This document shows positions 12,334 to 43,276 of a stretch of 64,000 bases of DNA, piece by piece; within the stretch, counting starts at the first letter, position 1; each line of letters begins with the position of its first letter. The stretch comes from Escherichia phage vB_EcoM-LTH01. The stretch lies in sequence record PP430345. One strand, given 5' to 3'. A program made the position numbers and the translations under genes. The notes under the pieces are model-generated. The model was not told the DNA's origin. It ran no database searches and was given only the letters and a program-made list of their open reading frames with translations.

Positions 12334-13862
12334 CCTGCCGGAGCACGTACAGGACTGGTATAGTTGTCCCCATTCATTGTCGTTTGTTGCTCAATACCTA
12401 AACGAACATCTTCGATAGTTTGAACAACTACGGCTGGAATAACTGTAACCTGCCTTGTTGCTTGGATTCCCGTAATAGATCCACGAACAGTAATAACAGC
12501 AGTACCTGGAGCAACACCCGATACATATCCACTTTGTGTAACGACAGCAACGTTAGCATTACTGGTGGAATACACTAGCGGCTCGTTGGAGTTGGCAGGT
12601 GTTCTGTTAACAGGGATCACTTCAGAATCGTTAACTTCCACACTAGGGATGCTGCCGATACTGATCGCTGTCAATGGTGTGTATGAAACTATTTTAACCT
12701 GTGCCGATATACCTGTGGAGATAGAGGCAATGATGTTAGTTTCACCTGGTCCAGTCAATCTTACATTACCAGCGCTATCCACGGTTGCAACATTACCATT
12801 CTGAGAGGTCCAAGTAACAGGATATTGGCTCGCCAAGTTTGCAGGGAGAACTTGAGCAGATATCCCTTGGGTAAAACCTACACGATTTGTAATGCTATCT
12901 GGTGTAGTAACAAGTGCAGTTGGTGACAGACTTCCAGTACCTTGTGCCTGATCAGTCTTGATAATGTACATCACTGCGACGTTCTTAGGTCTGTTTTCCG
13001 GTGCAGTCGGAACTACACGGCTTGCATCGAATCGAACATCACCTGCTGGGTTTTTACGATCGTGGTCAGGACCCGAGTTTGAGTTATATTGCGTATAAAG
13101 CGCACCTTGTTCACGATAACCGTGATCAGTACGGATACTTTCGTAACCCATTACACCCGTAATGTTTCGAATCGCATCACCTTGAATAGAACCTAAAGCA
13201 CGACCAGAGTCAGGGTCGTAAGCTCCAGATCCGTGCGCCCATCCACGAAGGAACAATCCACGATAATCAGGGACTACGTTTCGTCCTAAAACTTGGTACA
13301 GTCGTGGGTTCTGAGATGTACTGAATACTTGCCCGTTACACTCCAAGAATCCCGCCGGAGGAACTTGACCAGCCCAAGTAAGAATTGCACCAATCGGAAC
13401 CAGACGAGGCTCAAGCTCATCAATACGTGCGTTTAATCGGGAAACTGCATTATCTAAGTCTTGAGATAAACGAGTAACACGCTGATCAACCGCAGTGATC
13501 TCACGACGAAGATCTGCAACAGTCTGCTCTACATAAGTTCTTAAAGTTGCAACAGATTGTCTTACGTTCGCAACATCTTCACGAATAACTTCCAGTTGAT
13601 TGTTTACTCGTGTTTCGAGTTCCTGAATCAGTCGCTTGTATTCTTCTTCAACCTCTGGAAACTTCTCTTCTACGATCCAATTAAGCCAAGCACCAGACTG
13701 GTGAAGAATATAGTTGAATTCTTCTGCCGCTGGTTTTTGCCCTTTGTCATAGCCCTTTGCTAAAAGGTCATCAATCGGTTTTGATTTGTTAGGTCTTCCA
13801 GTACCAGGAAGGTTAACATCTTGTGCCGCAAAGACAACAATCGGTGTTGTTGGTCTAGCCAT
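12228..13862 (-). CDS. tail fiber protein with collar-like and Ig-like (Big_2-type) domains
   Basis: LTWAGQVPPAGFLECNGQVFS...PDYRGLFLRGW resembles phage tail-collar domain; TWTSQNGNVATVDSAGNVRLTGPGETNIIAS resembles Big_2 repeats. Confidence 0.65.
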   Translation of the reverse strand: MARPTTPIVVFAAQDVNLPGTGRPNKSKPIDDLLAKGYDKGQKPAAEEFNYILHQSGAWLNWIVEEKFPEVEEEYKRLIQELETRVNNQLEVIREDVANVRQSVATLRTYVEQTVADLRREITAVDQRVTRLSQDLDNAVSRLNARIDELEPRLVPIGAILTWAGQVPPAGFLECNGQVFSTSQNPRLYQVLGRNVVPDYRGLFLRGWAHGSGAYDPDSGRALGSIQGDAIRNITGVMGYESIRTDHGYREQGALYTQYNSNSGPDHDRKNPAGDVRFDASRVVPTAPENRPKNVAVMYIIKTDQAQGTGSLSPTALVTTPDSITNRVGFTQGISAQVLPANLASQYPVTWTSQNGNVATVDSAGNVRLTGPGETNIIASISTGISAQVKIVSYTPLTAISIGSIPSVEVNDSEVIPVNRTPANSNEPLVYSTSNANVAVVTQSGYVSGVAPGTAVITVRGSITGIQATRQVTVIPAVVVQTIEDVRLGIEQQTTMNGDNYTSPVRAPAGCVITGVVSAGLGLNQGYYKPIQKRMSGVWVTVEG

Positions 13863-41117: not shown

Positions 41118-41154
41118 ATAAATCCTCCTTTTGGATATTTTATCACCGAAATCA

Positions 41155-41186
41155 CAAATAAAAAAGCCTCCCAAATGAGGGAGGCT
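41155..41186 (-). terminator. intrinsic terminator ending the tRNA operon
   Basis: Hairpin GCCTCCC-TCATTT-GGGAGGC followed on minus strand by TTTTTTATTTG. Confidence 0.6.
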
Positions 41187-41234
41187 GAGGCGAAGGAGAG
41201 GAGATTATATTATTGTTATTATATGAGGGTAAAT

Positions 41235-41309
41235 TGGCTGGGGATACTGGACTCGAACCAGTGAATGTTGGAATCAAAATCCAATGCCTTACCGCTTGGC
41301 TAATCCCCA
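41235..41309 (-). tRNA. tRNA-Gln (anticodon TTG)
   Basis: Manual cloverleaf: 7-bp acceptor, anticodon arm TTGGA-TTTTGAT-TCCAA, T-arm ACTGG-TTCGAGT-CCAGT, encoded CCA; close to E. coli tRNA-Gln. Confidence 0.8.
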
Positions 41310-41317
41310 TTTTTGTT

Positions 41318-41393
41318 TGGAGCGGATAACGAGACTCGAACTCGTGACATTCTGATTGGAAATCAGAAGCTCTACCAACTGAGCTATACCCGC
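41318..41393 (-). tRNA. tRNA-Gly (anticodon TCC)
   Basis: D-arm GCTCAGTTGGTAGAGC, anticodon arm TCTGA-TTTCCAA-TCAGA, T-arm ACGAG-TTCGAGT-CTCGT, CCA encoded. Confidence 0.8.
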
Positions 41394-41398
41394 ATATT

Positions 41399-41475
41399 TG
41401 GTCGGTGTACGAGGATTTGAACCTCGAACCTAATGCTCCCAAAGCATTCGCGCTACCAAGTTGCGCTATACACCG
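41399..41475 (-). tRNA. tRNA-Pro (anticodon TGG)
   Basis: Anticodon arm AATGC-TTTGGGA-GCATT, T-arm CGAGG-TTCAAAT-CCTCG, CCA encoded. Confidence 0.8.
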
Positions 41476-41479
41476 TATT

Positions 41480-41560
41480 TGGCGTGAAGGTGAAGAGTCG
41501 AACTCCTTACGACTGGTTTTGGAGGCCAGCTTGCCACCGTGACAATTATGTTACCCGCAC
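41480..41560 (-). tRNA. tRNA-Trp-like (anticodon CCA), atypical 5' half
   Basis: Anticodon loop CTCCAAA and T-arm GGAGTTCGA resemble tRNA-Trp, but acceptor pairing needs a mismatch and the D-arm region is ~5 nt too long. Confidence 0.4.
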
Positions 41561-41569
41561 ATTAATTTG

Positions 41570-41642
41570 GTTTCCGTACTGGATTCGAACCAGTATCACA
41601 ACGAGACGTTGCGGGAATCTTATCCTATAAGCCTAACGGAAA
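41570..41642 (-). tRNA. tRNA-like element, possibly non-functional
   Basis: Perfect acceptor (TTTCCGT/ACGGAAA), U8-A9 and T-arm ACTGG-TTCGAAT-CCAGT, but anticodon-position hairpin has a 3-nt TCT loop on a 7-bp stem. Confidence 0.3.
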
Positions 41643-41645
41643 ATT

Positions 41646-41732
41646 TGGTGCATTGTGATGGAGTCGAACCACCCGAGTTCTATGAACAGCAGATTTACAG
41701 TCTGCCCCGCTACCCCTACGGTCTAACAATGC
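41646..41732 (-). tRNA. tRNA-Tyr (anticodon GTA), long variable arm
   Basis: Anticodon arm GCAGA-CTGTAAA-TCTGC identical to E. coli tRNA-Tyr; variable arm GTTC-ATA-GAAC; perfect 7-bp acceptor; CCA encoded. Confidence 0.8.
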
Positions 41733-42040
41733 CTTATCCTACGGTCACACAAGTCTGACCATCTATCTCTGAGCAAGGGATTTCAAAATGTCTCCCGTCC
41801 CCAAATACATCTCGCCACATAGTCTATTCGGAAGCGGGAGTCTATGCACACCCCTTGCGGTAAGTGACCTCACTTTGAGATCAGCATCTTCCTTATTCGA
41901 CGAGTTAAATTCTCTTTAAGGTAGCCAGTGTTCGCAGCACTAACTATGAGGTATCCGTAAGATGATTTCAGTCATCTACCGAAAAATTACACCAAGCAAC
42001 TACCTTAAAGAGAACTTCTTAGTAAAGGCCCTTGCGAGCC

Positions 42041-42415
42041 TTAATCTTCACCTTCTGCCATTTTATACTCACGAATCTGAGTAGTTAATGGAATAGCATC
42101 TTTAAATGCATCAGAAGGGCCTTGATGAGTTTCTGAATTTGCAGAAGTAGTTCCTCCTGCCAGATCCTCTTCATTATCTTCCATTGTGTACAGATTGTTT
42201 GCCTTTTCAGCTTGCTCAAGAATATACTTCGCAGTAGTTTCTTTAACTTTCTCTGTACCGGAAGTCAGTAGACCTTCCAGAGTTTTAATTGCTTGAGGAG
42301 TAAGTCTTGCAAACTCGGAACGAGCATGAAGAATTGCTCTCTCAGTATTGATTGCAATGCTTTCCTCTGTAGTAGGCCGACCGCGTTTTCGAGTAACGAT
42401 TTCAGCTTTAGCCAT
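42041..42415 (-). CDS. hypothetical early protein (basic N-terminus RKRGRPTTEE, acidic C-terminus)
   Basis: ORF track 42041-42421; ATG 42415 preferred (GAGG + 5-nt spacer); promoter-like hexamers just upstream. Confidence 0.45.
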   Translation of the reverse strand: MAKAEIVTRKRGRPTTEESIAINTERAILHARSEFARLTPQAIKTLEGLLTSGTEKVKETTAKYILEQAEKANNLYTMEDNEEDLAGGTTSANSETHQGPSDAFKDAIPLTTQIREYKMAEGED

Positions 42416-42442
42416 AAACACCTCAATTCAGTCGATATAACT

Positions 42443-42471
42443 ATATTAGCAGTATAATAGGATTATGTCAA
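42443..42471 (-). promoter_or_regulatory. putative sigma70-like promoter (TTGACA-17-TAATAT)
   Basis: Consensus -35 and 4/6 -10 read on minus strand upstream of the 42415 start. Confidence 0.4.
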
Positions 42472-42607
42472 GAACTTATTGAAATGTATTAAGAAATGAA
42501 ATGGGGGTGCGCCGTTTCTGCTGTAATCTACGTCGTTATCGTTGAGGGAACTCGTAGTCAGGGAACATCAGTCCGACGACTTATCGGGAGCGACCCGACT
42601 TCTTATG

Positions 42608-42682
42608 TGGTGGCCCTGGGTGGAATCGAACCACCGTCTGGCGATTATGAGTCGCTTGCTTGAACCGTCCAGCTACAGGGCC
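42608..42682 (-). tRNA. tRNA-Met (anticodon CAT; initiator vs elongator vs tRNA-Ile2 not resolved)
   Basis: Perfect acceptor GGCCCTG/CAGGGCC, anticodon loop CTCATAA, T-arm GGTGG-TTCGATT-CCACC, discriminator A, CCA encoded. Confidence 0.75.
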
Positions 42683-42701
42683 TGTATTTAAAAGAACTTA
42701 G

Positions 42702-42780
42702 CGCGGGAGGAAGGACTCGAACCTTCATACTCCAATTACTCGATTAACGACGGTTTAGAAGACCGTTGAGATACACCCGC
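42702..42780 (-). tRNA. tRNA-Arg(TCT)-like element with non-canonical architecture
   Basis: T-arm GAAGG-TTCGAGT-CCTTC and perfect hairpin ACGGT-CTTCTAA-ACCGT, but the hairpin sits at the D-arm position; no canonical cloverleaf found. Confidence 0.3.
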
Positions 42781-43093
42781 GCTAAATTCTCTTGTGGGTG
42801 GTGACAGGTTTTGGATATTTAACGACAGGATAACCTTAAACCTCGTCATCATGACAAGGGGTACACCGTAAAAGATTGTCGTGGTATTAAAACTATAATG
42901 ATCCGTGGATCACTAATCAGACGATCTTCGACGGCTCCCCGATATACACAGGGATGGACTGGGCATCCCATTTAGTCGCAGTCAACCAAAAGCGTAAATC
43001 GCGGCGGTGGTATATTGGTTCCAACATATATTTATCCACCCAGCCTTCAAGATGACTAATCTCTCAGGCAACAAAATAATCTTACATATTTAA

Positions 43094-43276
43094 TCAGCTA
43101 TTGTCAACAGGTTTTTTACCATTAATGCAGAGATTACACATCACTGATCTCTTTGGTCCTAAAAACCTGTAACCGCAAACAAAACACTGACAAGTGTAGC
43201 CTTTTTGTTTTTCATGGTTGCGAGGATCATCGAAACTTAGAGATTCAAAGGTCTGGTCTTTCATCATACATCCCAA
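43094..43276 (-). CDS. small zinc-ribbon-like protein (CQCFVCG ... CNLC)
   Basis: ORF track; two Cys pairs. Confidence 0.4.
   Translation of the reverse strand: MGCMMKDQTFESLSFDDPRNHEKQKGYTCQCFVCGYRFLGPKRSVMCNLCINGKKPVDNS

Follow-up and report, generated by a model that had tools for sequence, protein, structure and literature searches.

The 64-kb window analyzed here (64,000 nucleotides of Escherichia phage vB_EcoM-LTH01, record PP430345) carries on its minus strand a tRNA cluster in which five ordinary tRNA genes are accompanied by three tRNA-like elements, E1, E2, and E3. Comparison of sequences, helices, covariation, distribution, synteny, and anticodon restriction leads us to favor, with moderate confidence, a reading in which all three are non-standard tRNA-type RNAs maintained by selection, with E3 serving as an arginine tRNA, E1 as a tryptophan tRNA, and E2 as a non-decoding RNA. 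E3 appears to be a new structural variant of tRNA that is widespread, phage specific, and overlooked, and whose function we infer from sequence comparison; E1 would be a second, narrower variant. An initial annotation had recognized five canonical minus-strand tRNAs and three elements that do not fold canonically, and both observations hold: ARAGORN run on the whole window calls exactly five tRNAs, the same ones at the same coordinates (Table 1), while E1, E2, and E3 receive no ARAGORN call there, and ARAGORN and Rfam do not fold all eight canonically. A chance origin of the three elements can be dismissed, because all of them recur in other phages with compensatory changes. The closest relatives are unclassified Vequintavirinae allied to rV5: over the 2-kb cluster region, identity is 97.6% to Escherichia phage UPEC06 and 95 to 96.5% to phages A7_1, A73, W70, and A5-4.

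E3 is a tRNA-type RNA without a D hairpin

Two arms of E3 are those of a textbook tRNA. The anticodon arm, ACGGU-CUUCUAA-ACCGU, is a perfect hairpin with the canonical 5-bp stem and 7-nt loop, and the T arm, GAAGG-UUCGAGU-CCUUC, has a canonical GTTCRANY-type loop. The D arm is another matter, as the acceptor stem is separated from the anticodon stem by just 7 nt (UAUCUCA). With no D hairpin before it, the anticodon hairpin starts at position 15 and not 27, which bears out the earlier remark that a perfect TCT anticodon-type hairpin stands here at the wrong position. The Rfam tRNA model (RF00005) aligns to E3 at 35.8 bits with the D arm deleted and a 20-nt insertion, so that the element passes the gathering score of 29 and yet is not called by ARAGORN. 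RNAfold, given E3 and its flanks as a single sequence, returns a non-tRNA fold. We also tried to read the hairpin as a D arm, with the anticodon in the 23-nt region that follows it, and rejected this assignment, as that region cannot be folded into a 5-bp stem with a 7-nt loop.

E3-like sequences were recovered by sensitive BLAST from at least 265 GenBank records of cultured phages (265 to 267) that belong to unrelated groups. The carriers include Felixounavirus (85 to 89 kb), Mydovirus, Phapecoctavirus-like phages, coliphages of 145 to 150 kb, 110-kb Klebsiella phages, jumbo phages of 350 to 386 kb, and Streptomyces phages, Yaboi among them; four pattern scans of IMG/VR gave 60 to 65 distinct family members. 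Aligned without gaps, 52 distinct sequences share 32 invariant columns out of 82, and every stem is variable. The proposed structure is paired in 94.7% of cells, compared to 64.7% in shuffles, double changes are found at 18 of its 21 pairs, and the covariation score is 0.765, against 0.19 for shuffles and at most 0.15 for slid partners. RNAalifold recovers the acceptor, anticodon, and T helices independently from the same alignment. The initial annotation had raised the possibility of decaying pseudo-tRNAs, that is, functionless remnants of tRNA genes. Compensated changes speak against this, because neutral decay would break pairs, and a family with so many invariant columns and with covariation in all stems across unrelated phage groups is not what such decay should leave behind.

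A fourth helix is apparent from the alignment. The linker that follows the acceptor stem, U-A-U-C-X-Y-Z, leads straight into the anticodon stem, and the 23-nt "variable" region reads CGUUAA(N)-Z'-Y'-X'-G-UAAYUGGAGUAU. On the evidence of pair counting, a helix of 3 to 4 bp between these segments, P2, is real, because every one of the 52 sequences pairs at both X-X' and Y-Y' (12-41 and 13-40), and each of the two occurs as three pair types. The dinucleotide combinations observed are UC/GA, AC/GU, AG/CU, AU/AU, GC/GC, GG/CC, and UU/AA, with CC/GG in later loci. P2 extends the anticodon helix, and a 7-nt bulge remains on the 3' side.

The positions that do not vary suggest how the core may be organized. 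These are U8, A9, the UAA that opens the post-P2 strand, UGGA, the A-U that ends this strand, and U-U-C and A of the T loop. In tRNA numbering, the order would be U8, A9, 22-25, 26, anticodon arm, connector, 10-13, AAYUGGA(GU)A, U, and T stem, in which AAYUGGA(GU)A may be equivalent to A14 R15 Y16 Y17 G18 G19 A20 ... A21 and the next U to Y48. Candidate residues for the U8-A14, R15-Y48, G18-psi55, G19-C56, and A21 contacts are all invariant, and E3 residues would thereby fill the same spatial positions as those of a D arm. The simplest description may be that one block, the 5' strand of the D stem plus the D loop, has been transposed from before to after the anticodon arm.

Precedents for parts of this arrangement exist. 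In D-armless tRNA-Ser, a longer anticodon helix keeps the distance between anticodon and acceptor end, and AGN codons are decoded. The absence of the D arm and the lengthening of the anticodon helix in mitochondrial tRNA-Ser(AGY/AGN) are described in PMC4013460, and E3 resembles this metazoan tRNA in having no D hairpin, a UAU connector, and 3 to 4 extra pairs stacked on the anticodon stem. Unlike it, E3 retains a canonical T loop (UUCGAnU) and a GG-containing D-loop-like strand, so that an elbow contact is still possible, and it is phage encoded, with arginine rather than serine features and bacterial EF-Tu, ribosomes, and arginyl-tRNA synthetase (ArgRS) as presumed partners. By analogy, D-armless mitochondrial tRNA-Ser(AGY/N) would nonetheless be the nearest functional counterpart of E3. 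In the permuted tRNA genes of Cyanidioschyzon merolae, the 3' half is encoded ahead of the 5' half, and a canonical tRNA emerges after processing; E3 likewise has tRNA segments in a non-standard order. A circularly permuted gene of this type was rejected for E3, as its two acceptor strands follow the usual order and form a helix together, the D-strand block alone is moved, and it is the mature RNA that would be rewired.

A covariance model of the family built from the alignment, R1, scores members at 91 to 104 bits, divergent variants at 57 to 74 bits, and canonical tRNAs at 33.5 bits or less; its sole match in the window is E3, at 101 bits. A scan of 185,579 bacterial and archaeal species, with one genome each, returned 12 matches. 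Four are true E3 members, all on contigs of metagenome-assembled genomes (MAGs) that also bear tRNA genes, three and seven of them in two cases, and these contigs are probably binned phage DNA. The other eight, including both isolate genomes, are chance matches with no tRNA features, and no isolate genome in the scan holds a true member. In several phages, HNH homing-endonuclease genes lie beside or over E3, as in SSBI34 (L195, 1514-1975) and loci H137, H144, and H170, and endonuclease-driven cassette transfer may have spread the family.

E3 as a probable arginine tRNA

The anticodons of the family point to arginine. When only the D-loop-like strand and the T loop were fixed, leaving the anticodon free, the scan recovered 65 distinct sequences, 64 with UCU and one with CCU. 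A second E3-architecture copy in locus L191 (2689-2766) has the anticodon ACG and a 3-nt bulge. E3 anticodons are therefore for arginine only, with C35 invariant and U or G at position 36. The identity set of bacterial ArgRS comprises C35, U36 or G36, A20, and A or G at position 73. The GGA motif in the post-P2 strand is invariant in all 52 aligned members and in the variants, and its A is a candidate equivalent of A20 for ArgRS. Of the 40 members that encode CCA, 23 have a G discriminator, 15 an A, and 2 a U; the discriminator of the window copy is G. As for where the rarer copies stand, the CCU copy is on contig L217 (about 12980-13070), and the ACG copy adjoins a canonical tRNA-Arg(tcg) on a contig that also has a standard UCU copy.

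Gene order is consistent with this assignment. In Mydovirus NDO71, a canonical tRNA-Arg(tct) lies between tRNA-Leu and tRNA-Cys, and the PVP-SE1 arrangement is canonical as well; in Mydovirus K54lambda1.1.1, E3 occupies the exact NDO71 Arg(tct) slot, with the aligned 3' spacer and tRNA-Cys identical. Nine E3 loci with 11 to 28 tRNA genes have Arg(acg), Arg(tcg), or Arg(cct), and in none of them is a canonical Arg(tct) present. All tRNA genes of UPEC06 lie within the region that matches the window, and E3 and E1 are therefore the sole Arg(UCU)- and Trp-type genes of this phage type. AGA is used at 6.3 per 1000 codons in the 42 long open reading frames (ORFs) of the window (13.8% of Arg codons), about threefold higher than the approximately 2 per 1000 of E. 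coli. Together these features suggest that E3 is most likely a working AGA decoder.

The relationship to ordinary phage tRNA-Arg(UCU) is close at some positions and distant at others. E3 has the loop CUUCUAA and the genomic slot of the canonical genes in PVP-SE1, NDO71, and rV5-like phages, and the T arm and acceptor end are near-identical between the canonical PVP-SE1 gene and E3 members L017 and L061 (GCGGGUUCGAAUCCUGC and ...GCCUCGACCA). Unlike the canonical tRNA, E3 has the 5' D-stem strand and D-loop block after the anticodon arm and a 7-nt bulge instead of the usual variable loop of 4 to 5 nt, and it goes unrecognized by ARAGORN.

A different explanation for the restriction to phages is that the odd elements are tRNA mimics directed against host defense, either as bait for tRNA-targeting nucleases or toxins or as survivors of phage-induced tRNA destruction, with unusual cores that exclude them from normal tRNA pathways or make them poor substrates there. 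The occurrence of E3 in phages and not in scanned isolate genomes would fit, since the architecture then seems to bring a phage-specific benefit, as would the conservation of E2 in spite of its lack of a decoding loop and the third of E3 members that have no CCA, half of which lie in helices of 20 to 23 bp. Phage tRNAs are known to counter anticodon nucleases (PMC10264068). The nuclease-evading tRNAs described there resemble E3 in being phage encoded and different from the host tRNA in possibly defense-defeating ways; however, they keep the cloverleaf and alter loop bases, whereas E3 keeps a textbook anticodon loop and alters the core. We regard the mimic explanation as unlikely, as E3 precisely replaces canonical tRNA-Arg(UCU) in syntenic slots and supplies the missing UCU isoacceptor in large tRNA sets, its anticodons shift within the arginine set only, with C35 and U36 or G36 retained, and a G or A discriminator together with CCA is found in 38 of 60 distinct members. 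Charging needs such an anticodon restriction, discriminator, and CCA end, and a decoy does not. No defense system against tRNA-Arg(UCU) was identified in the present analysis.

The ends of E3 divide the family. CCA is encoded in 40 of 60 distinct members (38 with G or A as discriminator), and none of these 40 has leader-trailer pairing of more than 2 bp. Half of the 20 members without CCA lengthen the acceptor helix by 12 to 16 pairs, and the window copy belongs to this long-stem subtype; every position of the extension is paired in SSBI34, and in L021 it covaries. E3 lies 20 nt upstream of tRNA-Met within an RNase III-like helix (about 21 bp), and E2 is separated from tRNA-Tyr by 3 nt and from E1 by 7 nt; these positions might indicate that the elements are processing punctuation, modules that solely steer cuts by RNase P, RNase III, or RNase E for the maturation of neighboring tRNAs. 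Such tRNA-like punctuation is established in mitochondria and offers a precedent. We nevertheless find this quite unlikely, for it leaves unexplained the invariant anticodon loop, arginine-only anticodons, conserved GGA, discriminator, and CCA of E3, as well as the invariant CCA anticodon, G73, and CCA end of E1, and the canonical tRNAs of the cluster are packed 5 to 8 nt apart without such modules.

Returning to E3 as an arginine tRNA, its three-dimensional equivalence to a D-armed tRNA, processing, charging, and decoding can be sketched as follows. After U8-A9, the strand corresponding to the 3' side of the D stem would run directly into the anticodon stem; the anticodon arm would be followed by the 7-nt bulge, the 5' D-stem strand, the D-loop-like AAUUGGAGUA strand, and the T stem. 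The AAUUGGAGUA strand would supply the G18-G19 equivalents for the elbow with the T loop and the A20 equivalent read by ArgRS. E3 would be co-transcribed with tRNA-Met inside the leader-trailer helix of about 21 bp and excised by RNase III and RNase P; maturation of the window copy presumably proceeds through RNase III, then RNase P, 3' trimming, and CCA addition, the last by the host enzyme or by a CCA-adding enzyme of the UPEC06 type, the gene for which lies outside the window. Charged by host ArgRS, E3 would then supply AGA decoding for an AGA-rich genome.

Several findings weigh against this scheme. The mapping onto the D stem and loop is motif resemblance plus one covarying helix, and the D-loop-like strand is invariant and hence uninformative for covariation. 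RNAalifold does not itself predict P2 from the E3 alignment, and because both RNAfold and RNAalifold miss this helix, the evidence for it is pair counting and not energy. The acceptor of the window copy has 6 of 7 pairs, with U.U at 6-67, in a family that is 98.9% paired at the acceptor. The window copy encodes no CCA, and the helix of about 21 bp around it would hinder RNase P unless opened or cut first; for this copy, maturation is the least secure step of the functional reading. Locus L020, alone among the loci, carries both E3 and a canonical Arg(tct) beside it, and E3 is thus not always a replacement. To our knowledge, D-hairpin-less tRNAs are not known to function with bacterial EF-Tu and ribosomes.

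With regard to the 3' end, UPEC06 has an annotated CCA-adding/repair enzyme and a second nucleotidyltransferase in regions outside the window (L213, 13935-19945 and 28975-29316), along with annotated fragments of a seryl-tRNA synthetase and of RNA ligase 1. A phage CCA-adding enzyme could serve the CCA-less or non-canonical members of the cluster.

A more speculative version of the arginine reading, which we consider doubtful while giving it a real minority chance, is that E3 is a phage-private form of tRNA spread horizontally: an Arg tRNA with transposed D strands that would remain L shaped and be charged by host ArgRS and yet go unseen by a factor that reads the tRNA core. Such a factor might belong to a tRNA-directed defense, as a nuclease or toxin, or to the machinery with which the phage itself destroys host tRNA. 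E1 and E2 would belong to the same arms race, with E2 as a decoy tRNA body without an anticodon loop.

E1 is a probable variant of tRNA-Trp

E1 is an 81-nt element arranged as acceptor, an 8-nt linker UAACAUAA, a hairpin of 6 bp with a 3-nt loop (UUGUCA-CGG-UGGCAA), an anticodon arm with loop CUCCAAA, T arm, G73, and CCA. The anticodon arm, CUGGC-CUCCAAA-ACCAG, has the canonical layout with a C31.A39 mismatch, the T arm, (A)GGAG-UUCGACU-CUUC(A), has a canonical loop, and the acceptor has 6 of 7 pairs. The departure from the cloverleaf thus lies in the D region, where the linker and the hairpin with its small loop stand in place of a normal D arm; the D region had been described as about 5 nt too long for a Trp(CCA) tRNA, and we find an excess of about 6 nt. 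RF00005 gives no match to E1 at E<=10, and the tRNA-Sec model (RF01852) scores it at 19.4 bits, below the gathering score of 47; E1, like E2, stays under every Rfam tRNA threshold.

The similarity to tRNA-Sec deserves comment. E1 shares with it a D stem of 6 bp with a very small loop, the Rfam model aligns the E1 hairpin to its own D stem, and E1 could also be read with 8 bp in the acceptor and 4 bp in the T stem. Unlike tRNA-Sec, E1 has the anticodon CCA and not UCA, a 5-nt variable loop, and an 8-nt linker, and its score falls well short of that model's gathering score.

Relatives of E1 are present in 43 GenBank records, including UPEC06, Salmonella phages of Seunavirus, Mydovirus, SSBI34, and a weak partial match in Av-05. 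Across these records and three IMG/VR loci, all belong to Vequintavirinae by name or taxonomy except the partial Av-05 match. The hairpin differs among five Vequintavirinae lineages in a compensatory manner: UUGUCA/UGGCAA, UUGCAG/CUGCAA, UUGCUC/GAGCAA, UUGCAA/UUGCAA, and GGCGGG/CCUGCC. The T stem changes from A-U to G-C, and the acceptor is rebuilt in SSBI34 (AGAAGGG/CUCUUCU). The linker is conserved at 8 nt with the consensus UAAC(A/U)UAA, and the CUCCAAA loop, G73, and CCA are invariant across the variants. In SSBI34, the triloop UGU occurs together with the T loop UUAGAUU, which may be a single-event tertiary swap of G19-C56 to U-A. Compensation in hairpin, T stem, and acceptor across five lineages argues against decay here too, and for both E3 and E1 that explanation is already contradicted by covariation.

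E1 is the sole Trp gene in the PVP-SE1 tRNA region examined (23 ARAGORN calls) and in the present phage, and it is annotated by the PVP-SE1 record only, as an 81-nt tRNA-Trp. We propose, with lower confidence than for E3, that E1 is a working phage tryptophan tRNA with a tRNA-Sec-like D arm, in which the arm would be zipped up to the 6-bp hairpin with a 3-nt loop and the linker lengthened; the two extra hairpin pairs could fill the layers of U8-A14 and R15-Y48. The C4.U69 mismatch, which is conserved, and the weakness of the 31-39 pair (C.A or U.G) fit this proposal poorly. A role in reading UGA, by an effect like that of the Hirsh suppressor, is unsupported, as TGA serves as an ordinary stop codon in 10 of the 42 ORFs.

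E2 is a tRNA shape with a closed hairpin

E2 had been noted as an element with perfect acceptor and T arms and a TCT triloop on a 7-bp stem, and this description stands, with slightly wider limits (Table 1). The anticodon arm is replaced by CGCAACG-UCU-CGUUGUG, in which 7 bp close a 3-nt loop; opening two pairs gives the loop CGUCUCG, still without U33. The acceptor has 7 of 7 pairs, the T arm, ACUGG-UUCGAAU-CCAGU, is perfect with a canonical loop, and the D loop is near-canonical (AUAGGAUA) with at most 3 clean D-stem pairs. No Rfam family matches E2 at E<=10. The acceptor, D region, and T arm resemble those of rV5-type tRNA-Arg(UCU).

Relatives of E2 occur in about 66 phage records. Approximately 60 Phapecoctavirus genomes have its D region and T arm with a shorter closed hairpin, CACAA-(CUA, CUUA or UUUA)-UUGUG, and no CCA, and in the siphovirus phiEB49 the corresponding segment is GUACUU-AAC-AAGUAU, with A73 and CCA, an element that ARAGORN calls tRNA-Val(aac). 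The hairpin is closed throughout the family despite unrelated sequences, and no member has a 7-nt loop with U33, with phiEB49 arguably an exception. We conclude that E2 is a conserved tRNA-shaped RNA that would not decode; most likely it acts through the shape of its acceptor, T arm, and elbow, as a processing module or a decoy. Of the possibilities offered in the initial annotation, tRNAs with unusual architecture describes E3, with its covarying stems, and E1, with its covarying D hairpin; E2, lacking a usable anticodon loop, may be a tRNA-derived regulatory RNA, as that annotation had also suggested. E2 may be comparable to the T4 species 1 and 2 RNAs (rnaC and rnaD), small, stable RNAs that are co-transcribed and processed with phage tRNAs, from which it differs in being tRNA sized with a recognizable acceptor stem, D region, and T arm.

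The evidence is less favorable at the level of close relatives. CCA comes straight after the E2 acceptor, with no discriminator base. In the close clade, E2 is near-fixed save for the hairpin, where A-U replaces a G.U pair, the loop is UAU in place of UCU, and phage A73 has lost one pair; this amounts to 3 substitutions in the 17-nt hairpin and 1 in the other 63 nt, a pattern that would fit relaxed constraint as well as selection. E2 is absent altogether from the close relative A5-4. The changes in hairpin and loop among relatives that are 95 to 97% identical are what decay might produce, and to these can be added the rejection of E1 and E2 by ARAGORN and Rfam, the mosaic cluster, and the loss of E1 and E2 from some close relatives. 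Still, the hairpin is retained in phiEB49 with an unrelated sequence, and each of the three elements is kept in other, sometimes very distant, phages with compensatory changes in stems, such that decaying pseudo-tRNAs now seem a highly improbable explanation for the set.

Annotation and implications

Copies of E3 in GenBank are nearly all unannotated; the exceptions are labeled tRNA-OTHER, tRNA-Undet, tRNA-TERM, or tRNA-Val(aac), or lie under "hypothetical protein." The label tRNA-TERM is found in Salmonella phage 7t3 (H120), and in Streptomyces phage Yaboi (L212, 2495-2573) the member is tRNA-Val(aac), an ARAGORN-style annotation that makes the D-arm misassignment rejected above and takes GUUAACA for the anticodon loop. 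The region of the UPEC06 record that was examined has zero tRNA features, and "hypothetical protein" coding sequences cover E3, E1 with E2, and tRNA-Met. Searches of the literature, including queries with conserved strings, found no description of RNAs of the E1, E2, or E3 type, although their coverage was incomplete and an earlier description is possible; a 2020 review of non-canonical tRNAs does not mention phages. Other unusual tRNA genes were seen along the way: a 99-nt tRNA-like element to which ARAGORN assigns a 4-base anticodon in an rV5-like phage (L005, 2665-2763), an 86-nt "tRNA-Lys" in PVP-SE1 (L037, 3087-3172) that has 11 nt inserted ahead of the anticodon arm, and an 85-nt tRNA-Asn with a long variable arm in a Mydovirus (L006, 456-540).

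Gene finders presuppose the cloverleaf, a shape taken to be uniform among all tRNAs except those of animal mitochondria. The E3 family is a conserved D-hairpin-less tRNA-type RNA in hundreds of phages, with hosts that include Gram-negative bacteria and Streptomyces. If E3 is charged and decodes AGA, then a rewired core must be acceptable to bacterial ArgRS, EF-Tu, RNase P, the CCA-adding enzyme, and the ribosome, the family would offer a natural means of testing which core elements a tRNA really requires, and phage tRNA counts and analyses of codon compensation would be systematically incomplete. Should the phage-private architecture hold, E3 would be the first functional non-cloverleaf tRNA outside organelles. 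The exclusivity of E3 to phages also ties it to the field of tRNA-targeting immunity.

Layout of the cluster

The features of the cluster are listed in Table 1. It adjoins genes that in relatives stand before the large terminase, and the terminator proposed in the initial annotation to end it was found in place, with a hairpin and a T-run. The codons of the phage's UUG, UCC, and UGG tRNAs are A-ending and often used by the phage.

Table 1. Features of the tRNA cluster and of E3 (window coordinates)
Feature	Position	Strand	Basis or detail
Intrinsic terminator closing the cluster	41155-41186	-	Hairpin 41186-41165, T-run tail to ~41155
tRNA-Gln(UUG)	41235-41309	-	ARAGORN, canonical
tRNA-Gly(UCC)	41318-41393	-	ARAGORN, canonical
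tRNA-Pro(UGG)	41399-41475	-	ARAGORN, canonical
E1, putative tRNA-Trp(CCA) variant, 81 nt	41480-41560	-	Sequence comparison, Rfam alignment
E2, tRNA-shaped, closed hairpin replacing anticodon arm	41568-41642	-	Stem 41613-41607 with 41603-41597, loop UCU 41606-41604
tRNA-Tyr(GUA), class II	41646-41732	-	ARAGORN, canonical
Highly structured non-coding RNA, ~300 nt, between ORF and tRNA-Tyr	41733-42040	-	Fold z-score
ORF, 124-126 aa, phrog_3330, interrupting the cluster	42041-42421	-	PHROG assignment phrog_3330
Sigma-70-like promoter TTGACA-17-TAATAT, extended -10 TG, before small ORF	42443-42471	-	Consensus scan
tRNA-Met(CAU)	42608-42682	-	ARAGORN and Rfam, canonical
E3 with leader-trailer extension	42689-42794	-	14 further pairs, acceptor helix ~21 bp (42794-42774 with 42709-42689)
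E3 core, tRNA-Arg(UCU)-like, no D hairpin	42702-42780	-	Rfam tRNA 35.8 bits, family model R1 101 bits, covariation
E3 acceptor 5' strand	42780-42774	-	
E3 connector UAU	42773-42771	-	
E3 helix P2 5' strand CUCA	42770-42767	-	
E3 anticodon stem	42766-42762 with 42754-42750	-	
E3 anticodon loop CUUCUAA	42761-42755	-	Anticodon UCU 42759-42757
E3 bulge CGUUAAU	42749-42743	-	
E3 helix P2 3' strand CGAG	42742-42739	-	
E3 D-loop-like strand UAAUUGGAGUAU	42738-42727	-	
E3 T arm	42726-42710	-	
E3 acceptor 3' strand	42709-42703	-	
E3 discriminator G	42702	-	
Sigma-70-like promoter TTGACA-17-TAAGAT, upstream of E3 and tRNA-Met	43079-43107	-	Consensus scan only

Pfam gives no match for the phrog_3330 ORF inside the cluster. 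The non-coding stretch between this ORF and tRNA-Tyr folds at -109.5 kcal/mol (z = -4.5 compared to shuffles), forms a stem of about 20 bp between distant segments (UUCUCUUUAAGGUAG ... CUACCUUAAAGAGAA), and matches nothing in Rfam; it may be another stable RNA of the cluster. Rfam finds no other family for E1, E2, or E3. A sub-threshold match to YrlA, a Y RNA-like family, at 41338-41454 on the minus strand (42.5 bits, gathering score 69) extends over the 3' portion of tRNA-Pro and the 5' portion of tRNA-Gly and looks like an artifact of adjacent tRNAs, and a sub-threshold Plastid-ycf2 match is likewise an artifact of adjacent or antisense tRNAs. We also considered an intron or protein-coding origin for the odd elements and rejected it, as no credible ORF covers them and substitutions track base pairing and not codon positions.

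The cluster (41150-41760) is mosaic among phages that are 95 to 97% identical. A7_1, A73, and A5-4 have a different tRNA-Tyr, the gene order Gly, Gln, Pro, and an ORF of about 70 aa replacing E1, and A5-4 has unrelated sequence where E2 stands in the window. This mosaicism looks like cassette exchange at the boundaries of tRNA genes.

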